Source: a virus (taxonomy: Duplodnaviria; Heunggongvirae; Uroviricota; Caudoviricetes). From it: a stretch of DNA of 32,904 nt. The stretch spans positions 1-32,904 of the IMG/VR virus record IMGVR_UViG_2778261269_000003, one strand, 5' to 3'. Both the position numbers and the translations under genes were made by a program. Position 1 is the stretch's first letter. Each line of letters opens with the position of its first letter. Positions 7,003-32,904 of the stretch are shown in pieces. The notes under the pieces were generated by a model, which saw nothing but the letters and a program-made list of their open reading frames with translations, was not told where the DNA came from and made no database searches.

Positions 7003-7434
7003 ATGAAGAAGTTGATGACTACTGCTTTTGTATTCGTGCTGGTCTGGGGGCTGTTTGGCCTGCTGGTCTACGCGACTTTACAGGGCGACCACTCATTGAT
7101 GAGCATCGTCGTAGCGGCTTACTGGGCGATTATAGTTCTTGCCTGCTTCATCTCGCCTCTGTTTCTTGTGGCTGTGCTCATGGCAGGGAAAGAGAGTGAC
7201 CCAATGGAGCGTGCCAAGCTGTTAATCCCACTGAAGGACTATTACAAACGCAAGGGGGCGACTAGGAAGTTCATTAGCCTTGCGACCATGGCGGCAATTT
7301 TCGTCATGTTGTCTTATTCCGGCTGGGTGTTCACATCGTTGTTTTACATCTTGGCGTGTGGCTTTGTCACGGTGCTTAATTCGGTCGGCAGAGACAAGTT
7401 CGAAGAACTGACAGGCCACATCGTTAAGTTGTGA
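7003..7434 (+). CDS. Hypothetical integral membrane protein (about 4 predicted TM segments), moron candidate
   Basis: 143 aa, strongly hydrophobic segments; occupies the position where lambda has bor. Confidence 0.5.
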   Translation: MKKLMTTAFVFVLVWGLFGLLVYATLQGDHSLMSIVVAAYWAIIVLACFISPLFLVAVLMAGKESDPMERAKLLIPLKDYYKRKGATRKFISLATMAAIFVMLSYSGWVFTSLFYILACGFVTVLNSVGRDKFEELTGHIVKL

Positions 7435-7965: not shown

Positions 7966-8616
7966 ATGAGCAAGCCGGACTGGGAGGCCATCGAGACGGC
8001 GTACCGTGCCGGAGTGATGTCCCTCCGAGAAATAGCATCACAACACGGTATCAGCGAAGGCGCTATCCGTAAGCGTGCCAAGCGTGACGACTGGTCACGT
8101 GACCTGAATGCGAAGGTGAAAGAACGCGCTGACGATCTGGTACGCAAAGCTGAGGTACGCAAACAGGTACGCAGTGAAGTAACTTTTAACGAACGCGTAC
8201 TCATCGAGGCTACTGCTGAGGTAATCGCCAATGTCCGTATGGAGCATCGCGGCGACATTAAGCGAGCCCGGCAGATAACGAACGCCCTGTTTGATGAGTT
8301 GGGGGCAGAGTGCGCAGACGTGTCCGCACTGGAGAAGCTCGGAGAGTTGATGTTCGACCCCGACGACAAAGGTCAGGACAAGCTCAACGATCTGTATCAC
8401 AAAATAATCAGCCTGCCTTCCCGAGTTAAATCCATGAAAGACCTGAGCGACAGTCTCAAGACACTGATCGGCCTCGAACGTGAGGCTTATAGCATCGAGA
8501 ACAAGGCTGAAACGAAAGAGGTCACGCATAACGTCATGCTGGTACCAACCAGTGACAGCGTGGATGACTGGGAAGCGGCAGCACAGAAACAACAGGATGG
8601 GGTGCTCGATGGATGA
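7966..8616 (+). CDS. Terminase small subunit (HTH-containing)
   Basis: 216 aa with N-terminal HTH-like segment (MSLREIASQHGISEGAIRKRAKRDDW); directly upstream of and ATGA-coupled to terminase large subunit. Confidence 0.68.
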   Translation: MSKPDWEAIETAYRAGVMSLREIASQHGISEGAIRKRAKRDDWSRDLNAKVKERADDLVRKAEVRKQVRSEVTFNERVLIEATAEVIANVRMEHRGDIKRARQITNALFDELGAECADVSALEKLGELMFDPDDKGQDKLNDLYHKIISLPSRVKSMKDLSDSLKTLIGLEREAYSIENKAETKEVTHNVMLVPTSDSVDDWEAAAQKQQDGVLDG

Positions 8617-10175
8617 ATTACAAAGCTGTATGGAAGCCACTGCCTGGATCCCAGTCTCTGGCGCTGAGCTGTCCGTGTAACGAAATCCTGTTCGAGGGTA
8701 CTCGTGGCCCGGGAAAAACCGCTGCGCAGTTAGCCAGGTTCCGGCGTAACGTCGGCGTGGGCTATGGCTCATTCTGGCGCGGCGTCATCTTTGACACCGA
8801 ATATAAAAACCTTGCCGACATCATCACTCAGTCGAAGCGTATGTTTCGACTGTTCAACGATGGCGCGCGATATCTTTTGTCTGCGAGCGAATTGCGATGG
8901 GTATGGCCCACTGGCGAGGAACTTCTCTTCCGCTTCGGCAAACAGGCAGATGACTACTGGGATTTTCACGGTCAGGAATTCCCGTTTATCGGCTTTAACG
9001 AGCTGACGAAACAGCAGTCTCCAGAGTTCTACGAAATGATGTTCTCCTGTCGGCGTTCATCGTTCAGGCCGGAAAACTACCCGCTGGAGAATGGCAAGTT
9101 ACTAAGGCCAATCCCGCTGGAGACGTTCAGCACGACCAACCCGTTCGGCATCGGGCATACATGGGTGAAGAAACGCTTCATTGAGCCAGCACCACGCGGA
9201 ACCGTACAGCGTGACAGGCTGATGGTATTCAACCCCCAGACAGAGTGTGAGGAGGAAATCACGCTTACTCGCGTGGCAATTCACGGGTCCTATAAAGAGA
9301 ACCCGTATCTCGATCCGCAATACATCGCGACGCTGATGGCTATCAAAGACCCTAACCGCCGCAAAGCCTGGGTAGAGGGTTCTTGGGATGTAACCAGCGG
9401 TGGGCGCTTTGACCACCTGTGGAATGAAGCGCTGCACGTCATCAAGCCGTTCCGCATACCTGATAGCTGGACCGTCGACCGTTCCCATGACTGGGGCGAG
9501 TCGAAGCCGTTCTCTAACCTCTGGTGGGCGCAGGCTGATGGCACTGCCGCCGAACTGCCTGATGGTCGACAATTCTGCCCGCCGGCAGGGACGATAATCC
9601 TGATCGGCGAATGGTATGGCTGCCCGCCTGACGAGCTTAACAAAGGTCTGAATATGTCATCCACTAACGTCGCGAAAGGCGTGGCGTGGATTGATAAGCG
9701 ACTGGTTGGCGAAGACGTCGACGAGCCGGAAGAGATTCAAATCGACGGTATAACACAGGGACAACTGAACATTGTTCCGGGGATATGCTCGGAAGTTATT
9801 CCGGGGCCAGCGGATAGCGCCATTTTCAACACCGGCGACGATGAGTTATCCATCGGCCAGAAAATGGAAAATCAGGGTGTCGAATGGCTTGAAGCCAATA
9901 AGAAACCAGGCTCTCGAGTTAACGGCGCTTCGGTTTTCGCAGACATGCTTGAGGCAGTCGTTGAAGGCAAAAAGCTGGAATCCGGCATCCCGGAGAAGCC
10001 TGCCTTTTACGTGTTCGAACATTGCCGTGGCTGGATTAGCCGCATCCCAGTTCTGGTACGTGACAGCAAAAACCCTGATGACGTAGATACCCAGCAGGAA
10101 GATCACGACTGGGACGCCACCCGCTACCGTGTACTGCACTCTCCTCGCCGTTCTGGGGCGATATTCTTCACATAA
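8613..10175 (+). CDS. Terminase large subunit
   Basis: 520 aa with Walker A-like GTRGPGKT near N-terminus and acidic nuclease-type C-terminal half. Confidence 0.85.
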   Translation: MNYKAVWKPLPGSQSLALSCPCNEILFEGTRGPGKTAAQLARFRRNVGVGYGSFWRGVIFDTEYKNLADIITQSKRMFRLFNDGARYLLSASELRWVWPTGEELLFRFGKQADDYWDFHGQEFPFIGFNELTKQQSPEFYEMMFSCRRSSFRPENYPLENGKLLRPIPLETFSTTNPFGIGHTWVKKRFIEPAPRGTVQRDRLMVFNPQTECEEEITLTRVAIHGSYKENPYLDPQYIATLMAIKDPNRRKAWVEGSWDVTSGGRFDHLWNEALHVIKPFRIPDSWTVDRSHDWGESKPFSNLWWAQADGTAAELPDGRQFCPPAGTIILIGEWYGCPPDELNKGLNMSSTNVAKGVAWIDKRLVGEDVDEPEEIQIDGITQGQLNIVPGICSEVIPGPADSAIFNTGDDELSIGQKMENQGVEWLEANKKPGSRVNGASVFADMLEAVVEGKKLESGIPEKPAFYVFEHCRGWISRIPVLVRDSKNPDDVDTQQEDHDWDATRYRVLHSPRRSGAIFFT

Positions 10176-10185
10176 GGACAACTCA

Positions 10186-11661
10186 GTGAGTAACGATACA
10201 GAAATGCAAGTCCTCGCTGGGCTCATTGTGAACAGCCTCAACGAGGTCTCGAGATCACGTCAGCTTTATGCGGCTGGCTTCAACAAATCAGGTAACACCA
10301 AGCGGCACCATCTGTGGTGTGAATTTGGCTACCCTGAGCGTCTCGACTTTGACCACTTCTACAACATGTACGAGCGTAATGGCGCTGCGTTCGGCGCGGT
10401 TCATAAACTGCTGGATGCATGTTGGTCTGATAGTCCAGTAATCGTGGATGGCGACGAAACCAAAAAGGCCAAAAAGACCACGCCTTGGGAAAAGAAAGTC
10501 ACCAAGCTCATGAAGAAGTACTGGGCAAAAGTGAAAGATGCCGATCGACGGAATCTTGTCGGGCACTATTCCGCTCTCATCCTGCAGTTTGCAGACAGTC
10601 GGGAATGGTATGAACCAGTAAATCGTGACGTAATGCGTAATTCCCGTGAGCGCGGCCTGGTAAAGATGATTCCTGCATGGGAATCGCAGGTGAAACCGGG
10701 GGAGTTAGAGCAGGATCAGAAGTCTCCTGATTACGCCATGCCGAAGTTCTATTACTTCCAAGAGCAGCCTGTCGGGGATAACGGCAACATTGTCGGACCG
10801 ATGCGCTCCATCAAAATCCACCCTGAACGCATCATCATGTTTTGCGAGGGGTCAGAAGACGAATCATCCCTGGCTGGCATTCCTTTCTTGCGGGCAGGCT
10901 ATAACGACCTGCTGGATATGGCTAAAACCTCCGGCGGCAGCGCTGAAGGATTCCTGAAAAATGCCAGCAGGCAGCTCGGCATTAACATGTCGAAAGACAC
11001 CAAGATTGAAAAAATCATGGAGGATGCCAAGAAAGCCGGATATTCAGGGCTGGCTGAGGCGCTAAACGCCGCTATACAGAAGTTGAACTCTGGTACTGAT
11101 TCGGCGCTGGTTACGCAGGACGGAGAGGCGAAGGTGCTTTCTGTGGCCGCTGCCGATCCGAGTCCAACATGGACAGTGTCAGCTAATCAGTTCTCATCTT
11201 CAGTTCAATTGCCTTTCACCATCCTGTTTGGTCAGCAGACAGGAAGGCTTGCGTCAGATCAGGACAAAAACGACTTTGCCAAGCGCTGCAATAGTCGCCG
11301 CAATGGGTTCCAGACCGACCGGGCGAGTGCAGTTATAGAGCGACTTTGGACGGTGGAAGTTATCGAACCACCTAAATCTGGCGAAATCACGTTAACCTGG
11401 TCCGATCTACTCGCGCCAAGCGAGAAAGAGAAGATTGCCAACATGAAGGAAATGGCTGCGGTCGCGAAGGATACTCAGCAAGCCTATGGCACACCTGCTG
11501 TTGATGAGAACGAGGTCAGGGAGGCTGGAGAACTTGAGCCGCGTGAGGATGTTAAAACACCTGACCCAAATAAAAAGGTAACGACCGATGATCCTCTTTC
11601 CGATGACACTGGAGCAAAAGACGAAAGTAGGGACACCGGTAGTTCCGCGCAGCAAGGTTGA
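10186..11661 (+). CDS. Portal protein
   Basis: About 490 aa following terL; GTG 10186 with AAGGA RBS (alternative ATG 10204); acidic C-terminal tail. Confidence 0.72.
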   Translation: MSNDTEMQVLAGLIVNSLNEVSRSRQLYAAGFNKSGNTKRHHLWCEFGYPERLDFDHFYNMYERNGAAFGAVHKLLDACWSDSPVIVDGDETKKAKKTTPWEKKVTKLMKKYWAKVKDADRRNLVGHYSALILQFADSREWYEPVNRDVMRNSRERGLVKMIPAWESQVKPGELEQDQKSPDYAMPKFYYFQEQPVGDNGNIVGPMRSIKIHPERIIMFCEGSEDESSLAGIPFLRAGYNDLLDMAKTSGGSAEGFLKNASRQLGINMSKDTKIEKIMEDAKKAGYSGLAEALNAAIQKLNSGTDSALVTQDGEAKVLSVAAADPSPTWTVSANQFSSSVQLPFTILFGQQTGRLASDQDKNDFAKRCNSRRNGFQTDRASAVIERLWTVEVIEPPKSGEITLTWSDLLAPSEKEKIANMKEMAAVAKDTQQAYGTPAVDENEVREAGELEPREDVKTPDPNKKVTTDDPLSDDTGAKDESRDTGSSAQQG

Positions 11662-11692
11662 CCCGACGCGATCGGCAAAACAGGTCACCGCG

Positions 11693-12586
11693 ATGTTTCG
11701 GGATATCGAGGACCGGTATCTCGGCATCAAGCATGCACTGAAAGCTCAATTCGACCAGCGTCTGATCGGGCGGGAGCGTGAGGTAAACAGCCATAACTGG
11801 CACTTCCTCTGCCACGACCACGGCGAGGATATGCGGCTCTACCAGGTCAACGCCGGCAAGTTCATCTACGACATGTCGGCGCAGGAGCTGGCTGACCTGC
11901 TGGAAGCTGTGCAGGGCATTCTCGACGATTACCTGCTGGATGGTGGCGAGCAAAACCTCTGGGCTATGGATTACGTCGTCGCAGAGGCGCAGCGAGGCAC
12001 ACTGGAGGCATTCAACAACCTCTCTCAGCAGTCACAGGTGTACGCCAGCCAGACGACGCTACAGCAGCTTTTAAGCAGCCCTGGTTATCTGAACCAGATA
12101 GCGGCGGCCAGGCTGACAACGTTCAGTGACTGGAAGGTCATCAGCGATACGGCCCGCGGCGACCTGACCAACATCATCACCGATGCGGTAGCGCGCGGAG
12201 TGAATCCTCGCGAAACGGCCAGCGTCATCAGCAAGCGTCTCGATGTGTCCATGTCGAAGGCAAAGACTATCGCTCAAACTGAACAGGTCGGCGCGCTACG
12301 GCAGGCGCAATGGAATGAAACGGACTGGGCTGCTGACCGGTTGGGGCTGAATACCGGACTGCTGTGGTTGTCGGCACTCAAGCCAACAACGCGAACCTGG
12401 CACGCCAGCCGCCACGGCAAGGTCTACACCACTGAAGAGGTGCGGGACTTCTACGCCGAGAACGGCAACCGGTACAACTGCTACTGCAGCCAGATTCCGG
12501 CCCTGCTCAATGACGACGGCAGCATCTTCAATGAAGGGCTGGCTGAGAAGCTGGCGAAAGAGAGAAAGGCCTGGGCGTCAGGTTGA
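11693..12586 (+). CDS. Head morphogenesis protein (Mu F / SPP1 gp7-like)
   Basis: Position after portal, size and C-terminal Cys-containing region (NRYNCYCSQIP); start uncertain (11588, 11603 or 11693 all in frame). Confidence 0.6.
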   Translation: MFRDIEDRYLGIKHALKAQFDQRLIGREREVNSHNWHFLCHDHGEDMRLYQVNAGKFIYDMSAQELADLLEAVQGILDDYLLDGGEQNLWAMDYVVAEAQRGTLEAFNNLSQQSQVYASQTTLQQLLSSPGYLNQIAAARLTTFSDWKVISDTARGDLTNIITDAVARGVNPRETASVISKRLDVSMSKAKTIAQTEQVGALRQAQWNETDWAADRLGLNTGLLWLSALKPTTRTWHASRHGKVYTTEEVRDFYAENGNRYNCYCSQIPALLNDDGSIFNEGLAEKLAKERKAWASG

Positions 12587-12590
12587 TTCA

Positions 12591-12779
12591 TCAACCAAAT
12601 TCAACGACCTCATTAACTACAACCGTTAAATCATCGAATGTAGGCTTGGCGAATTGTAGGGCATGGTTCATGCAAAAAAGCATTGCGTCCTCACCCTTTG
12701 GATCGAGATATCCATCGTAATCAACGAAGATATCGTAGGATTGCCGGTTGATTGTGTAGTTAATTTTATACTTTTTCAT
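12591..12779 (-). CDS. Small hypothetical protein on the opposite strand (moron candidate)
   Basis: 62 aa ORF, ATG with AAGG RBS about 10 nt upstream, AT-rich relative to neighbours, convergent with head morphogenesis gene. Confidence 0.45.
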   Translation of the reverse strand: MKKYKINYTINRQSYDIFVDYDGYLDPKGEDAMLFCMNHALQFAKPTFDDLTVVVNEVVEFG

Positions 12780-12844
12780 TTTCTAATCGCCTTAATTACC
12801 TTCGAAGCATTTGAAATTTCAACATAGCATGAAGAGGACCCAGC

Positions 12845-14233
12845 ATGAAACGCAACCGCGTTAACGTGCTGACCGTCGTCAACTCCGCTTCAAACATCAC
12901 CACTGAAACCATCGACGGCAAGCCACATATCGTGGTTCGCGGCATCACGCCTGTCGTGGACGATATCGTGATGAACCGGAAGTTGTACCCGGCAGCAGAA
13001 ATCGAAAAGGCCTACAACACGCTTGAGCGTAACCCGATGCCGCTGGGCCACCCGAAGGTGGACGGCAAGCACGTGTCGGCGCGAGATGTCCGGGCAGTGA
13101 ATGAGTACCACGTCGGTGCCTGGCTGCAGAACGTCAGCCACAAGGACGGGAAGGTGACGGGCGATATGTACGTTAACCGCCAGTACGCCGAGTCCAGCGA
13201 GAAGGGCAAGCGCCTGATTAACCGTCTGGATGAGATGCTAGAGGGTACCAACTCCGACCCGATCCACATCTCCACCGGCCTGCTGTATTCCGGAATCGCC
13301 GCCAACGGCGAGTCGAAGGGCAAGAAGTACAACGAGATCGCCACCAACATGATGTTTGACCATGTGGCGGTGCTGCTCGATGAGCCAGGCGCAGGTACGC
13401 CGGAGGAGGGCGTGGGCATCTTCGTTAACTCAGAAGGTGATGAGCAACAGATTGAAGTTGCCCGTCTGGCTGACGGAATCGACTGCACCCGCGACGGCCT
13501 GCTCAACAAGACCAAATTCTTCTTCACCAACGCCTCCAACTTCTCTTTCGACGACATCTCCCGGGCTATCAGCGACAAGCTGCGCGAGGGTGACACCGAA
13601 GATAAGTGGCTTTGGCCTGAAACGGTGTGGCCGGACAGCTTCATCTACCGCGATGACACCAAATACCTGAAACAGAAGTACCTCATCGATGAGGGCGGCA
13701 AGGCCGTGTTCGTCGGCGAACCTGTAGAAGTCGTGCGCAAACCCACTGAGTACGAGATTAAAACCAACGGAGAGAATGATCCGATGAAAGAACTGATTAT
13801 CAATGCGCTGCAAGCCGCTGGTAAGCCGACCGAAGGCAAGTCCGACGCCGAGCTGATGGACGCATACAACCAGATGAAGGCCGACGAAGCCACCGCCAAG
13901 AAAAAAGGCGATGAAGAAATCGACCCTGAAACCGGCAAGCCCAAGAAAAAAGAGCAGGCCACCAATAACGAAGAGATGCCAGCCTGGGCGCAGAAACTCG
14001 CCGATCGCGTGGACGTCGTTTTCAACAGCCTGAACGCGAACGCCGATAAAGAGAAAGGCGAAAAGCGCGCAGCTGTGAAGCTGGCGATGAACATGAGCGA
14101 TGAAGAAGTCGCGGATCTGGACGGTAAGGCGCTCGACGCTATGTACGCCAAGTGTCAGACATCTTTCGGCCTGAACGGTGCGTTCCGCAACCAGGCTACC
14201 AACACCCAATCAGTCAGCGAAATGCCGGAGTAA
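12845..14233 (+). CDS. Putative prohead protease / scaffolding fusion protein (DUF2213-like)
   Basis: 462 aa between head morphogenesis and capsid genes; GAAGAGG RBS; C-terminal third is K/E-rich coiled coil typical of scaffolds. Confidence 0.55.
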   Translation: MKRNRVNVLTVVNSASNITTETIDGKPHIVVRGITPVVDDIVMNRKLYPAAEIEKAYNTLERNPMPLGHPKVDGKHVSARDVRAVNEYHVGAWLQNVSHKDGKVTGDMYVNRQYAESSEKGKRLINRLDEMLEGTNSDPIHISTGLLYSGIAANGESKGKKYNEIATNMMFDHVAVLLDEPGAGTPEEGVGIFVNSEGDEQQIEVARLADGIDCTRDGLLNKTKFFFTNASNFSFDDISRAISDKLREGDTEDKWLWPETVWPDSFIYRDDTKYLKQKYLIDEGGKAVFVGEPVEVVRKPTEYEIKTNGENDPMKELIINALQAAGKPTEGKSDAELMDAYNQMKADEATAKKKGDEEIDPETGKPKKKEQATNNEEMPAWAQKLADRVDVVFNSLNANADKEKGEKRAAVKLAMNMSDEEVADLDGKALDAMYAKCQTSFGLNGAFRNQATNTQSVSEMPE

Positions 14234-14236
14234 AAA

Positions 14237-14665
14237 ATGGCTAAAGACGGAAAACACGTAATTCACGCCGGTGGCATATTCCCTAACCCGCTGCTCAACC
14301 GTGAAGGCCGCGCCACCGCGGTCAAACCCGGCACCCTGGGCTTCTTCGATGCTGGCGTCTTCAAGGCGTCGGTAGATGGTAGCGAGACAGCGATTATCTA
14401 TGTCGCTGACTTCGATTATCTGCGCTGCAAAACGGTGGACGACACCTTTGCAGTAGATGATCTGTTGGTTGGCATCCATCCCTTGCCTGGCATGTTCCTG
14501 AACGTACGTGCTGCTGCCGGGACCTATAAAAAAGGCGACGCTCTCTCAATCGTCAACGGCCAGGTGAAGAAGTGGTCCACTGGCGAATCAGATCGCTGCT
14601 ATTGCGACGAAGAGCGCTCAATCACCGCCGCTGCTGGCGATCTCATTCGCGTAGTGATTAAGTAA
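14237..14665 (+). CDS. Putative head decoration-like structural protein (DUF2190-like)
   Basis: 142 aa gene between protease/scaffold and major capsid; GGAG RBS. Confidence 0.5.
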   Translation: MAKDGKHVIHAGGIFPNPLLNREGRATAVKPGTLGFFDAGVFKASVDGSETAIIYVADFDYLRCKTVDDTFAVDDLLVGIHPLPGMFLNVRAAAGTYKKGDALSIVNGQVKKWSTGESDRCYCDEERSITAAAGDLIRVVIK

Positions 14666-26261: not shown

Positions 26262-28637
26262 ATGGCCACCCAACCAACAAATAACGCAGTGCCAAGCGAA
26301 TCACCCCGTGATCTGAAGTTTAACGCGGGGAAAATTGATGAGTTCGTTACGTCTGAGAATCATGATTATGTTGACAGATTTGGCAATAAACATCGTACAA
26401 TTGAAGGCATAAATTACGATTCGAACCAGGCAATTCTGAATTATGGCTATATCACGAAGGATTCTTTTGAAGATGGCAGCACCATTAGCCTTGCTAACGA
26501 GTGCTTACGCTGGAAGAGCAACGGCGAGTACTACAGATGGGATGGGTCACTCCCCAAAGTAGTTCCCCCTGGCTCTACTCCGGAAGGCACTGGTGGGCTA
26601 GGGAAAGGTAAGTGGGTTGGTGTCGGAGATGCATCTTTGCGATCGGCAATGAAGAATGAGAATGGTACTGATTTAATTAATGGAACAAAATCTGTTGTTG
26701 GGTCAGTTACAAGATCACTAACAGATATGTTGTCAGACAAGATATCCGTGCGGGATTTTGGCGGAATTGATGACTATGATGGAACAAATGCATCAACATG
26801 CACTAACAACAGAATTCCATTTCAACGGTATTTTGAATATCTTAATTCAATTGGCGGTGGCGATCTAAATATTCCACGTAAATTAACCGGGAAATATTTT
26901 ATTAGTGGTGATGACCACACACAAGTTACCTCTAAAGTTCGTTTAAATACTGACGAAGGTGTATCTATACATCTTGATTTCTCTGGAGGTGCTTCAAATA
27001 CTCCATTTGCCAATCTCGATTTAAGGGCATCGAGCCAGATAAAGATTGAGTATGTTAATTTTGGTTATCCGTCATATGTTGGTGGTAGCGTAGACACGCC
27101 ATTTAGTGACTCTTTGCAAACCATGAACAATGGTGATGGTATTTACACGGTGCCAGAAGTACTATCAGGTAGTGATTTTAAAGTCATTTCATTGGGAAAT
27201 AGCTCTGTTGAAATACCACCGTTATCAACATCCGGAGATACAATCTCTTTTAATGGCGGAGGGGTTCCAACTGCAGCAGTCATCAGCGTGACTCCTGGTG
27301 ACGAAATTATGGCGTTAATAGGCTCGAATTCGCTTGGGGGAATTATTGCCGGTGTCGTCACGGTTAATGGCTATGCTTATGTTTCTCAAGATACTTCTAG
27401 TGGTAATATTACCCTTGCAGAAGGCACGATAGGGCAGCCAAATATACTAACTGGTCTTAATTATGCTCTCATGGATCAGCTAAGAGATCGGTTTGACCGT
27501 GCTATCATAACAGTAAAAATTACTTCATCGAGAACCTTTACCGTTATGGCTAACGGTCTGGCAATATGCAGTCATACCACCAGGTCTAGTATTCTTGGCG
27601 CTTGTCTTGGTACTTCCGACATTAATAGTATTGTGAATGTATCACAAATGTCTCGAGTTAGAGGGCATAGTTTTTCCGGGTCCAAGCCTTTGAGGATATT
27701 GGTTTGCGGAGATTCAATTACCGATCAAAATAATCAATATTCATGGGCCAAATATCTCCAGATGCAGTTGGGCTCAGCTGGCGTTAACATTGCAGAGATA
27801 AATAATTTAGCAGTGGCTGGACAGACAGCGGCCCAACAACTCAGCATCCTGAAAACTGTTGGTGTAGGATATGATATCTGCCTGATACAGGTTGGTGTAA
27901 ATGATGTTCAGTTACAGACTCCGGTAGCATCCTTCATTTCGACAATAAATGAAATGGTCACTTACGCGAAGGGGATTGGAGCATTTCCGATTGTTGGTGT
28001 ACCCACGGCTTTTTATTCTCTTGCAGAGGCGAATGCTAATGGGCAAACGGGAGGGCAAAACACATCAAACAACTCTTCGATAGGGATGTACCGATCGCTT
28101 CTTATTCGTGCTGTTGCAGCAGCTGGCGGAATTGTTAACCTTGAGCCTATGAAAGGACATGGAGCTATGACGGCTAAGTGGCTGTCACTGAAACCGTATG
28201 CCGTCAGCGATAGCATCGTGCTGGACAATATTCACCCCACTCCATATGGGTCGATGCTCCTGGCACAAGGATATGCGCGATGCATTCTTGGATGGCTTAC
28301 TAGGCCTGACATGACACCAACGGAAAGCTTTGAATTTATTCCTAGCGGGTGGCTTAGCCCAGGATTTGGCGAAACATCGATCCCTAAAATTAAAGGAAGG
28401 GAGTTCTCTGGGTTGATAAGTCTGCATGCAACAAATATCAATGATGGTTCAGTGGCCTTCACTTTGCCACCATCATTTAAAGTAGATAACGTTAAGATGC
28501 TTGCGGTGACAGGGACAAACAGTTCCGGGCTTCCGGTAGGTGTTTGTAATTTATATGTTGGGACAGACGGGAAGTGTTACTTCTTTAATATTCCAGAAGG
28601 AGTTACCCAAGTATCAATGGACGGTGTGGTTTTATAG
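26262..28637 (+). CDS. Tail fibre / tailspike with embedded SGNH (GDSL) esterase domain
   Basis: 791 aa; SGNH blocks ILVCGDSITDQ (GDS at 27708-27716), IQVGVNDV, and LDNIHPT (DxxH at 28224-28235). Confidence 0.78.
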   Translation: MATQPTNNAVPSESPRDLKFNAGKIDEFVTSENHDYVDRFGNKHRTIEGINYDSNQAILNYGYITKDSFEDGSTISLANECLRWKSNGEYYRWDGSLPKVVPPGSTPEGTGGLGKGKWVGVGDASLRSAMKNENGTDLINGTKSVVGSVTRSLTDMLSDKISVRDFGGIDDYDGTNASTCTNNRIPFQRYFEYLNSIGGGDLNIPRKLTGKYFISGDDHTQVTSKVRLNTDEGVSIHLDFSGGASNTPFANLDLRASSQIKIEYVNFGYPSYVGGSVDTPFSDSLQTMNNGDGIYTVPEVLSGSDFKVISLGNSSVEIPPLSTSGDTISFNGGGVPTAAVISVTPGDEIMALIGSNSLGGIIAGVVTVNGYAYVSQDTSSGNITLAEGTIGQPNILTGLNYALMDQLRDRFDRAIITVKITSSRTFTVMANGLAICSHTTRSSILGACLGTSDINSIVNVSQMSRVRGHSFSGSKPLRILVCGDSITDQNNQYSWAKYLQMQLGSAGVNIAEINNLAVAGQTAAQQLSILKTVGVGYDICLIQVGVNDVQLQTPVASFISTINEMVTYAKGIGAFPIVGVPTAFYSLAEANANGQTGGQNTSNNSSIGMYRSLLIRAVAAAGGIVNLEPMKGHGAMTAKWLSLKPYAVSDSIVLDNIHPTPYGSMLLAQGYARCILGWLTRPDMTPTESFEFIPSGWLSPGFGETSIPKIKGREFSGLISLHATNINDGSVAFTLPPSFKVDNVKMLAVTGTNSSGLPVGVCNLYVGTDGKCYFFNIPEGVTQVSMDGVVL

Positions 28638-29760: not shown

Positions 29761-31203
29761 TTAAAAATTGAAGTAAATAAAGGATCCGGGAGCCGCCCCA
29801 CCCAAGGAAGCAGTCACTGCAATGCAAACGCCAAAGGCACACAGGCATGGAGCAAGCAGATTCCACGCTATACCACTCTTATGTTCTTTGGTCATCTCCA
29901 TGAAAACATTAGAATTTACATTAATTAAGCACGTCATAATGGCAATGGCGCAAACAGCTATCATATAGAAACCACCTTTCGATGCCTCATAGAGGAATGA
30001 GTCCGCAAAAGGTTGAGCATATTTAAATCCGGAAACCAAAGAATCGTAACCAGCAAACATTTTCTTTAGCAAACTAAAAGCATCATTTAAGTTATCTGTT
30101 CTGAAGAAAATCCAGGTGATATTCACGTAATTGAATGTTATAAACCAACCTACAACGCTCGGCATGCGAAAGCCATTTTGTGACCAATACCTGTGAATGA
30201 CAAGCCCAGCCCCGTGTAAAGCGCCCCACGCCAAAAAATTCCATCCAGCTCCATGCCAGAAACCGCCGATCAAAAACGTCAAAAACAGGTTTAGATATGT
30301 GCGTAATACACCATTTCGGTTTCCGCCAAGAGGAATGTAGACATAATTCCTGAGCCACGTGGAAAGGGTAATGTGCCAGCGTCTCCAGAAATCTTGAAGG
30401 TCTGTTGCTATGTATGGTGAATTGAAGTTGATAGGCAGCACAACGCCAAACAGAAGGGCCGAGCCAATCGCCATGTCAGTATATCCGGAGAAATCAAAGT
30501 ATAACTGGATACTGTATGAGAGGCTGGTTATCCATGCCTCCAAAGCACCAAGGGCTGAGATATTTGCATAACCTTGATCCGCTATAGAGCCAAAATATGA
30601 AGACAAGACAACTTTTTTGAATATTCCGACACTAAATATAAATACTGCGGGAACGAAATATTTCCCGAAATAATTATCCCTTGAGTTGAGTTGGTTTGTA
30701 ATTACATCATAATTTGTTATCGGGCCAGAGATGAGCTTAGGGAAAAACAAAATGTAGCAGCAATAATTTAATATTGAAATGTTAGATATCTGCTTTCTAT
30801 ACAAACTAACTGATAAAGAAATCTGCTGAAATGTATAGAAGCTTATGGCTAACGGCGCAATAACATTCATGTGGCCTATATTTAGGTTGAAAATACTAGA
30901 TATGTTACTTGCAAAGAAGTTGCAGTATTTAAAATAACCAAGAGATGCCACGTTAAATATAACTGATAATGCTACATATAATTTTGTCTTTTCAGATTTC
31001 ATCATTGTTAATATTGCGTAGTTTATCAGCATCGATATCAACAAAAGAGGCAAGAAATTAAATGTGAAAAAAGTATAGAAATACAGGCTAGCGCAACAAA
31101 TCCACACCTTGGAGAGAGCAATGTTAAATTTTTTCAGGAAAAGGAATATCAATACCACCAAAGGTAAAAACATTACAGAATATTCTAACGAGTTAAATAA
31201 CAT
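29761..31203 (-). CDS. MBOAT-family membrane-bound O-acyltransferase (AlgI/DltB/PatA-like)
   Basis: 480 aa polytopic membrane protein with the MBOAT His motif FWRRWHITLSTWLRNYVYIPLGGNR; very AT-rich. Confidence 0.8.
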   Translation of the reverse strand: MLFNSLEYSVMFLPLVVLIFLFLKKFNIALSKVWICCASLYFYTFFTFNFLPLLLISMLINYAILTMMKSEKTKLYVALSVIFNVASLGYFKYCNFFASNISSIFNLNIGHMNVIAPLAISFYTFQQISLSVSLYRKQISNISILNYCCYILFFPKLISGPITNYDVITNQLNSRDNYFGKYFVPAVFIFSVGIFKKVVLSSYFGSIADQGYANISALGALEAWITSLSYSIQLYFDFSGYTDMAIGSALLFGVVLPINFNSPYIATDLQDFWRRWHITLSTWLRNYVYIPLGGNRNGVLRTYLNLFLTFLIGGFWHGAGWNFLAWGALHGAGLVIHRYWSQNGFRMPSVVGWFITFNYVNITWIFFRTDNLNDAFSLLKKMFAGYDSLVSGFKYAQPFADSFLYEASKGGFYMIAVCAIAIMTCLINVNSNVFMEMTKEHKSGIAWNLLAPCLCAFGVCIAVTASLGGAAPGSFIYFNF

Positions 31204-31749: not shown

Positions 31750-32904
31750 TCACAACTTACCATCAAGCCAGTCTGCCCACCACTGCATCATCTCCCTGCG
31801 CTTATCCATGTACTGAGCGTGATTGTATATCCCACGCACAGATCCGCCGTTTGCATGTGCCAGTTGCACTTCAATAGCGTCAGCAGGCCATTCGTGCTCG
31901 TTCATAATCGTGCTGAATTCATGCCTGAATCCGTGACCGCTTTCCAGACCCTCATAGCCGATTTGTTTGATCACAAGCAGTACCGCGTTCTCGCAGATTG
32001 GCTTCTTCTTATCGTTGCGCCCGGCAAAAACAAACTCTGAGACTGGTTTGGTGATGGAGCTTAGCGTAGTGAGAAGTTCAACTACCTGGTCTGACATAGG
32101 AACCACATGAATTTTGCGTCCTTTCATCACACTGGCGTCGATGGTGATAATCCTATTTTCAAAATCGACGTTCTTCCATAGCATGGAACGAAGCTCTTTC
32201 GTTCTTAGGGCTGTGTAGCGTAAAACTTTGGTCGCAATGAGCGATACGATACTTCCTGAAAATGTTGCCAGTGCTTTGTTGAATGCCGGGATCTGGTCTG
32301 CAGGAAGAAACGGGAAGTTCTTCTTGCGGTATCCCTTCATGGCGTCAGCAAGGTCAGGTGCCGGGTTATATTTAGCCCTTCCGGTGACAATAGCGTAACG
32401 GAAAACCTCGCCGCATCTTCTGCGTGCTTTGTTGGCTCGTTCCATTGCACCGCGATCTTCAAACCTGCGGATTACTTCCAGCAGTTGCATCGGCTCAATA
32501 TCCTGAATTTCAAGGCCGCCAATGATAGGTAAAATGTCGTCGTCAAACATTTTGGCAAGTTCAGTTGCATACCCTACTGACCATACTTGCTTCTTGTGCT
32601 CGTACCATTCCTTGTAAATCGCACTAAAGGAATTGTTGTTAGACGAAGCCTTTTTCGCCTTTACAGGATCGATGCCAACCGAGATGTCTTTCCTCGCAGT
32701 CCATGCTTTATCCCTTGCCTCCTGCAAAGTCATAAGCGGATATTTTCCGACGGTCAGGATTTTCTCCTTACCGTCAATCTTGTAGCGAAGCTGCCATACC
32801 TTTTTCCCTGACACAGGGACATAAAGGTACAGGCCATTACCATCGAGAAGGCGGTATGGTTTTTCTTTCGGCTTTGCTGCTTCAATCTGCTTAACGGTGA
32901 GCAT
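31750..32904 (-). CDS. int: Tyrosine site-specific integrase (P4-type N-terminal arm-binding domain)
   Basis: 384 aa; start codon is the last three bases of the window; N-terminus ...KPKEKPYRLLDGNGLYLYV..., C-terminus HGFRHEFST...RGIYNHAQY with conserved His/Arg/Tyr residues. Confidence 0.9.
   Translation of the reverse strand: MLTVKQIEAAKPKEKPYRLLDGNGLYLYVPVSGKKVWQLRYKIDGKEKILTVGKYPLMTLQEARDKAWTARKDISVGIDPVKAKKASSNNNSFSAIYKEWYEHKKQVWSVGYATELAKMFDDDILPIIGGLEIQDIEPMQLLEVIRRFEDRGAMERANKARRRCGEVFRYAIVTGRAKYNPAPDLADAMKGYRKKNFPFLPADQIPAFNKALATFSGSIVSLIATKVLRYTALRTKELRSMLWKNVDFENRIITIDASVMKGRKIHVVPMSDQVVELLTTLSSITKPVSEFVFAGRNDKKKPICENAVLLVIKQIGYEGLESGHGFRHEFSTIMNEHEWPADAIEVQLAHANGGSVRGIYNHAQYMDKRREMMQWWADWLDGKL

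Follow-up and report, generated by a model that had tools for sequence, protein, structure and literature searches.

A rare reverse-strand cargo gene at a hot spot in the head operon of a lambdoid prophage

A small reverse-strand gene in the head module

The DNA analysed here, 32,904 nucleotides (nt) of the IMG/VR record IMGVR_UViG_2778261269_000003 (Caudoviricetes; hereafter the window, meaning the whole of this stretch), is the right arm of a lambdoid prophage, and between the MuF-like gene and the DUF2213 gene of its head module lies an open reading frame (ORF) of 62 amino acids (aa) on the minus strand. This ORF is a real gene, it is rare cargo, and the junction that houses it is a hot spot at which related prophages carry many different inserts. 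The early and regulatory genes (a lambda P-like replication gene, NinB, Dam, YbcO, RusA and the Q antiterminator), the lysis and packaging genes (holin, Rz and the large terminase, 8613-10175) and the head genes (portal, 10129-11661; MuF-like; DUF2213; head decoration, 14237-14665; and the DUF6260 capsid protein) share the plus strand, as do the tail genes and the tail spike that follow them, whereas reverse-strand conversion genes and the integrase lie beyond the late operon. Since every other gene from Q to the tail spike is on the plus strand, the 62-aa ORF is antisense inside the Q-dependent late operon. The first-pass annotation had described an AT-rich minus-strand ORF of this length amid a co-directional structural operon, and its coordinates and its content of guanine plus cytosine (GC) all agree with the present analysis. 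The same annotation had called the flanking genes head morphogenesis and protease/scaffold; the former name holds, with a MuF-like PF04233 domain, while the latter gene can be called only DUF2213/phrog_760, its role being suggested by position, and no library searched names a function for its product.

The length of the ORF alone is not significant, as a stop-free run of at least 62 codons is found in 23% of shuffles of the cassette, and the ORF is accepted as real because of its third-position bias and its ratio of non-synonymous to synonymous substitution rates (dN/dS, or omega). Compared with the copy in Pectobacterium, 30 of the 44 nucleotide differences fall at third codon positions (dN/dS 0.073, binomial P 5e-8), and none of the five other frames is open in either species; the Hafnia-type group (L023) differs by 12 synonymous and 5 non-synonymous changes (dN/dS 0.077, binomial P 6e-6). 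The neighbours, in the same comparison with Pectobacterium, have a dN/dS of 0.11 (MuF) and 0.20 (DUF2213), and by these alignments the 62-aa gene is genuine and under as much constraint as the structural genes beside it. A spurious ORF in AT-rich junk left by recombination at the hot spot would account for the frequency of equally long runs in shuffled cassettes, for the want of a known domain and for the small number of homologues. It is nonetheless extremely improbable in view of the third-position bias, the omega of 0.07 obtained independently in two comparisons, a homologue with 35% identity in a different genus and context, the closure of all other frames in both species and the conservation of an element resembling a Shine-Dalgarno (SD) sequence.

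The 62-aa protein constitutes a rare orphan family. A word-index search of 5.8 billion proteins returns two 90%-identity clusters, the first from E. coli, Enterobacter and Hafnia (94-100% identity, five sequence variants, with the exact sequence of the window on 51 contigs) and the second consisting of one Pectobacterium polaris protein with 77% identity. HMMER over 1.84 billion representatives adds one further true relative, P0004, making three clusters altogether; P0003, P0005 and P0006 from the same scan are rejected as repeat-protein false positives, and a profile search gives no additional relatives. None of 5,426 complete E. coli RefSeq genomes has the gene, which is likewise missing from the GTDB species representatives and from plasmids and has no tblastn match at E values up to 1 in 50,697 phage records, among which the presence of JBD26 and phi80 is unchecked. 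IMG/VR holds two occurrences, and this cargo is present in about 1 of the 491 IMG/VR relatives of the backbone. The Pectobacterium polaris copy (L005, 9137-11190) belongs to a three-gene prophage remnant that has no capsid genes, in which MuF has a 4-aa deletion, DUF2213 is truncated and the small gene is intact. The Pectobacterium island also contains OLD-TOPRIM/AAA_15 and UvrD-like (Gabija-like) genes, a relaxase, TerD and sheath genes of a type VI secretion system (T6SS).

P0004 (64 aa, 35% identity to the 62-aa protein, E 8e-5 in the full HMMER search) is encoded in lambda-type prophages of Serratia marcescens by an AT-rich gene that lies between Rz/Rz1 and Nu1, antisense to the late genes, in the slot where lambda has bor. 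As this copy occupies another backbone and another slot, the family is mobile cargo, tied neither to one backbone nor to the head module. The Serratia homologue is the second gene of a pair: an ATGA overlap joins its start to the stop codon of a 106-aa orphan gene, in a manner that resembles toxin-immunity and toxin-antitoxin pairs; the two-gene cassette is found at L014 (7684-8195) and also in L015-L021 and L029. The 106-aa partner, whose family has only 2 clusters, evolves faster than the homologue (omega 0.48 vs 0.18) and is cut short to 100 aa by a premature stop in most loci. Searches of Pfam, NCBIfam and PADLOC detect no toxin or antitoxin domain in either the 62-aa protein or the 106-aa partner, and the AlphaFold2 model of the partner, with a predicted local distance difference test score (pLDDT) of 61, is too poor for structure searching.

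The 62-aa protein itself has a mass of 7.3 kDa and an isoelectric point (pI) of 4.6, and inspection by eye finds no N-terminal hydrophobic signal-like stretch. Its AlphaFold2 model (pLDDT 86.8) is compact, with strands at residues 2-10 and 13-21, a helix at 30-44 and a strand at 53-61 (beta-beta-alpha-beta), and the predicted fold is a generic small alpha/beta one. The protein has no match in Pfam even at E values up to 10, none in PHROG below E 0.1, none in PADLOC or NCBIfam and none in a sequence search of the PDB below E 0.08; Rfam has no match in the region. The Foldseek hits in the PDB (best E 0.23) and in BFVD (best E 5e-3, to uncharacterised proteins) are all rejected as generic small alpha/beta matches. 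The small inhibitors of the T7 Gp2/T4 Dmd type are similar to the 62-aa protein in size (about 60 aa) and in their architecture of a beta-sheet plus one helix, and they appear as weak matches in three fold searches, but these matches are no better than those to the ribosomal protein eL20 or to PurS, and hhalign gives a probability of 0.2% against Gp2, that is, no sequence relation. An acidic DNA mimic is made less plausible by the Serratia relative, which is basic (pI 8.8), and there is no homology to the 74-aa cargo of phage ST101-KPC2phi6.1. In MuF polymorphic toxin systems, a MuF protein with a C-terminal toxin domain is followed by an immunity gene. Membership in such a system is rejected, as the MuF protein of the window lacks a toxin domain and the small gene is convergent with it rather than downstream in the same orientation: this MuF protein has 332 aa, its Pfam MuF domain stops at residue 302, and it is a short form without the C-terminal toxin domain.

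A cargo hot spot between two head genes

The MuF/DUF2213 junction was surveyed in 80 IMG/VR loci taken from 491 relatives; in these 80 the DUF2213 protein is 97-100% identical over its first 200 aa, and 78 of them, together with the window, gave 79 usable junctions. The distance from the MuF stop to the DUF2213 ATG ranges from 122 to 1304 base pairs (bp), with just 122 bp in four loci, and the 79 junctions contain 45 cargo clusters, evidence of a cargo hot spot of unusual diversity within a head-assembly operon. In the window, the cassette begins within the last 4 MuF codons (12575) and ends 11 nt before the DUF2213 ATG (12833), and GC is 0.36-0.43 across the cassette region vs 0.55-0.62 (about 0.57) in the flanks. 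The cassette adds 258 untranslated nt to the late mRNA, and the plus-strand frames across it hold 2-4 stops, in the window and in the Pectobacterium copy alike. Outside the survey, Klebsiella and Enterobacter phages with flanks 82-87% identical to those of the window carry, at the same junction, ORFs of 74, 104 or 158 aa or an HNH homing endonuclease; each of these genes is on the plus strand and has a terminator (GC hairpin and T-run) downstream.

Minus-strand cargo is of two kinds only in the survey, namely the 62-aa gene (in the window and in one IMG/VR contig) and, in ten loci, a gene for a Rap1a-family T6SS immunity protein (PF18602, E 6e-19 and 1.5e-13). The Rap1a proteins, all encoded on the minus strand and with N-terminal signal-like sequences, have 118 aa in L044, L062, L065, L066, L072, L080, L086, L090 and L099 and 116 aa in L069, and the family assignment suggests that these prophages confer protection against the T6SS amidase effectors of other bacteria. 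The most frequent cargo is a plus-strand protein of 64 aa (MLNKYFVAYQILKNG...) with a terminator downstream, present in 12 loci (including L031, 2714-2908). This protein may be a distant homologue of the 62-aa protein, since an ungapped alignment of 45 residues has 29% identity and a pairwise BLASTP E value of 8e-5, but profile-profile comparison with hhalign (P 0.003-0.007) does not strengthen the similarity. Other recurrent plus-strand cargos are a family of 200-215 aa with a CFTESP motif (12 loci), a family of 160-171 aa with an N-terminal hydrophobic stretch (6 loci) and HNH homing endonucleases (3 loci). PADLOC recognises no known defence family among the other cargos of the hot spot.

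The right-hand side of the junction is more conserved than its surroundings. The first ~55 nt of the DUF2213 gene (12845-12900) are 100% identical in the window, the Klebsiella phages L001 and L002 and the Pectobacterium remnant, and differ at one base in the other two Klebsiella phages examined (L003 and L004), whereas the genes around this conserved start are only 60-95% identical. The conserved start of DUF2213 may be an anchor that drives the exchange of cargo by recombination.

Putative expression signals and inverted repeats

The features of the cassette and its immediate flanks are collected in Table 1. The ORF start and the DUF2213 ATG are divergent and separated by 65 bp (12780-12844), and a weak hybrid divergent promoter is predicted here, composed of a -10-like element of the cassette and a -35-like element of the conserved backbone, with a predicted transcription start near 12814. 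The -10-like element does not vary among the E. coli and Hafnia-type copies and reads TGATATATT in Pectobacterium, while the bases just downstream vary. Across the survey, TATGTT stands 18 nt from the DUF2213 start codon in 11 of the 79 loci (the motif having been defined post hoc, after the sequences had been viewed), of which two carry the 62-aa gene and nine the 118-aa Rap1a gene; these are exactly the loci in which a reverse gene abuts DUF2213 at such an offset, and the motif is found in none of the 68 others. The tenth Rap1a locus, L069, which has the 116-aa type, has a different upstream sequence. The common offset suggests that TATGTT is part of a divergent promoter shared by both reverse cargos, and the 62-aa gene probably has a promoter of its own.

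Table 1. Coordinates of the small gene, its cassette, the flanking genes and the candidate signals in the window
Feature	Position	Strand	Remarks
Low-GC cargo cassette	12575..12833	unstranded	259 bp, GC ~0.39; from junction alignments, composition and hot-spot survey
62-aa ORF (MKKYKINYTINRQSYDIFVDYDGYLDPKGEDAMLFCMNHALQFAKPTFDDLTVVVNEVVEFG)	12591..12779	minus	ATG start; dN/dS 0.07-0.08; AlphaFold2 pLDDT 86.8
MuF-like head morphogenesis/minor capsid gene (left flank)	11588..12586	plus	PF04233, phrog_758, TIGR01641
DUF2213/phrog_760 gene (right flank)	12845..14233	plus	Scaffold/protease candidate by position only
SD-like AAGGCGA	12787..12793	minus	7 nt before ATG; conserved in Pectobacterium copy
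Putative extended -10 TGCTATGTT	12821..12829	minus	Sole TGNTATRTT match in whole window
Putative -35 TTCATG, weak	12844..12849	minus	3/6 matches, 17-nt spacer; overlaps DUF2213 start codon; conserved backbone
Perfect 12-bp palindrome TTGAAATTTCAA	12811..12822	unstranded	Chance frequency, not conserved
Inverted repeat GGTTGA-TTCA-TCAACC	12581..12596	unstranded	Spans MuF stop (TGA, 12584-12586) and minus-strand stop (12591-12593)

Two repeats had been given weight in the first-pass annotation, a perfect palindrome in the divergent interval and an inverted repeat enclosing both convergent stops, and both are present where it placed them. The palindrome reaches into the end of the putative -10 and includes the predicted transcription start, and taken alone the 65-bp interval gives it a P of 0.018; the window as a whole has six perfect 12-bp palindromes vs 8.3 +/- 2.8 in locally shuffled sequence. 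It is perfect in the E. coli group only, reads TTGAAACTTCGA in L022-L027, is imperfect in Pectobacterium and has no counterpart in the Rap1a cassettes, and on its chance frequency and lack of conservation the palindrome is rejected as an operator. In the Hafnia-type L022, a 9-bp tandem duplication (CTTCGAATG) occupies the palindrome site (equivalent to ~12810-12818 of the window), and this spot therefore tolerates indels. The inverted repeat, in turn, exists because both convergent genes end in GGT-TGA. Inverted repeats with 6-bp stems number 58 in the window vs 49 +/- 8 expected; the hairpin over the stop codons (-6.6 to -6.9 kcal/mol) has no U-tract, has a z of about 0 against shuffles in its context and is broken in L005, L006 and L022-L027. 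Its candidacy as a bidirectional terminator is rejected for its chance frequency and its lack of conservation. What survives of the earlier reading of the gene as an independently regulated moron is the moron itself, as close relatives lack the gene, other cargo occupies the junction and the GC deviates, together with a probable promoter of its own; the regulatory role of the palindrome and of the repeat does not survive.

Lysogenic expression, known systems and rival readings

The reading that we favour, and regard as rather probable, is that of a moron which is expressed in the lysogen, interrupts the late genes as in a noncontiguous operon and encodes a small binder protein. The 62-aa gene would be transcribed from its own weak divergent promoter, with the TATGTT -10 at the edge of the cassette and the -35 over the DUF2213 start, and would be active in the lysogen, at a time when the late genes are not transcribed; once the prophage is induced, late transcription running towards the gene would lower its expression. 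Its product would be a small cytoplasmic beta-beta-alpha-beta protein without a catalytic motif that most likely binds and neutralises another protein (immunity, antitoxin or exclusion type), to the benefit of the lysogen. We infer the promoter, the lysogen-specific timing and the binder or immunity role from several observations. Because the gene is reversed within the late operon and the same slot carries the lysogen-protecting Rap1a, a protective binder acting at the time of lysogeny is favoured, and the idea of a binder is consistent with an AlphaFold2 model that is confident, compact and devoid of enzyme-like matches and with the pairing of the Serratia homologue with its overlapping, faster-evolving 106-aa partner.

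Similar arrangements are known in other temperate phages. The minus-strand gene for the 83-aa Tab protein of JBD26 lies between the terminase genes under a promoter of its own; the prophage expresses Tab, which prevents invading phages from assembling their tails (PMC10884400). Tai of phi80, encoded in a noncontiguous operon, is expressed in the lysogen and its level falls upon expression of Q (PMC11364771). With this arrangement, expression in those systems is constitutive in the lysogen and goes down when Q-dependent late transcription begins (PMC10884400, PMC11364771). The Tab/anti-Tab and Tai/Ati systems share with the 62-aa gene a small reverse gene that interrupts the late operon of a temperate phage, but they are sited at the terminase or upstream of packaging rather than between MuF and DUF2213, and no similarity to them is detected by PADLOC or by tblastn in the phage records, whose coverage of JBD26 and phi80 is unchecked. 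The 62-aa gene resembles the morons known from HK97/HK022 comparative genomics (for example lambda bor and HK97 gp15; reviewed in references of PMC10884400) as an extra gene of deviant GC, placed between genes that are neighbours in relatives, that is dispensable, variable among close relatives and probably provided with its own promoter; it differs from them in having no recognisable terminator, in a promoter that appears weak and partly supplied by the backbone and in a predicted cytoplasmic product rather than a lipoprotein or membrane protein. The orphan Rap1a genes have in common with it the hot spot, the reverse orientation, the TATGTT offset and a small, non-enzymatic product, and differ in encoding periplasmic proteins of 116-118 aa with signal peptides, whereas the 62-aa protein has no N-terminal hydrophobic stretch (by eye) and no similarity to Rap1a.

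Several points weigh against the favoured reading. The putative -35 matches at just three of six positions, the -10 motif was defined after the fact, and between 12300 and 12900 a generic consensus scan reports no sigma-70 promoter at its threshold and a terminator scan finds no intrinsic terminator. The pI varies across the family (4.6, 5.3 and 8.8) and net charge is not conserved. If the 64-aa plus-strand cargo is homologous, orientation would not be essential and the argument from lysogenic timing would be weaker. Tab and Tai have an adjacent co-directional counter-defence gene and none is conserved between MuF and DUF2213, nor does the 62-aa ORF have an adjacent, translationally coupled partner gene in the window. 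The proposed function, finally, is argued only from analogy and position.

The chief competitor, an anti-defence protein that would be made early after infection from its own promoter, without dependence on the late operon, and inhibit host immunity, as an anti-CRISPR-like protein or a Dmd-like orphan antitoxin, is unlikely in our judgement. It draws on the anti-CRISPR locus of Mu-like Pseudomonas phages, a low-GC region between the Mu G homologue and the protease/scaffold gene (PMC3993853; RGP G in PMC4378225), to which the cassette is analogous as a low-GC, variable accessory locus between head morphogenesis and protease/scaffold-position genes. A small acidic orphan protein is also typical of anti-defence proteins, and the Serratia relative is paired with a possibly toxin-like partner. 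The anti-CRISPR operons of those phages, however, are co-oriented with the structural genes and include aca, and the cassette has a single reversed gene with no adjoining Aca-type helix-turn-helix (HTH) gene, a predicted beta-beta-alpha-beta rather than HTH product and no homology to anti-CRISPR proteins, the lack of a Pfam match ruling out the anti-CRISPR families that Pfam covers. The absence of a sequence relation to Gp2 and fold matches no better than those to eL20 or PurS also speak against this reading, the promoter looks weak where those of anti-CRISPR genes are strong, and reverse orientation in the late operon fits expression in the lysogen better, as does the Rap1a cargo. A bolder reading, speculative and in our estimate improbable, holds the 62-aa protein to be the orphan immunity or antitoxin part of an undescribed two-gene toxin-immunity family, represented by the 106-aa and 64-aa genes of Serratia, and the minus-strand side of the MuF/DUF2213 junction to be a dedicated "immunity-gene dock", whose promoter would be anchored in the 5' end of DUF2213 and into which unrelated protective genes would be swapped and expressed in the lysogen.

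Two further readings are each very improbable. The cassette might act mainly in cis, with the divergent promoter and an antisense transcript tuning MuF and DUF2213 and with the protein being incidental; a minus-strand transcript would indeed extend antisense into the 3' end of MuF in the absence of a terminator, and the untranslated insertion in the late mRNA would also suit such a role, but the purifying selection on the amino acids (omega 0.07), the occurrence of the family at an unrelated position in Serratia prophages and the relatives that do without the cassette count against it. Alternatively, the product could be a dispensable head-assembly helper, a minor virion protein or an ejected protein linked to MuF/DUF2213, as its location in the head module, a hot spot that always lies between the same two head genes and a possibly related cargo of 64 aa in the orientation of the late genes would allow; this reading agrees poorly with a gene that is antisense to the late operon and confined to so few relatives of the backbone, that is kept in a decayed Pectobacterium remnant devoid of capsid genes and that has its Serratia relative outside the head module, on a lambda-type backbone.

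As matters stand, the 62-aa gene is an ordinary moron, a known kind of phage element, and its chief interest is the hot spot and the promoter geometry that it has in common with a T6SS immunity cargo. A small-protein family that is uncharacterised and validated as real is added to the accessory genes of prophages, and a backbone-anchored divergent promoter seems to serve two unrelated reverse cargos, one of them a T6SS immunity gene. Should the 62-aa protein turn out to act in immunity, exclusion or anti-defence, further genes of that sort would be worth seeking at this hot spot.

Other accessory genes are present elsewhere in these prophages. The stretch of the window from Rz to the terminase contains a plus-strand ORF of 143 aa (7003-7434) with a weak match to the endolysin family phrog_162, and in the lysis/terminase interval of the E. 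coli sister prophages with the 62-aa gene (L006, 10990-11475; L007, 11351-11836) there is a reverse gene for an AcrIF11-like ADP-ribosyltransferase (PF26151). At the far end of the late operon, a plus-strand tail spike gene with a GDSL esterase domain (26262-28637) is followed on the reverse strand by a gene for a 359-aa protein and by an MBOAT O-acyltransferase gene (29761-31203) that adjoins the integrase (31750-32904); the tail spike and MBOAT region looks like a conversion module for surface-polysaccharide acetylation paired with a deacetylating spike.

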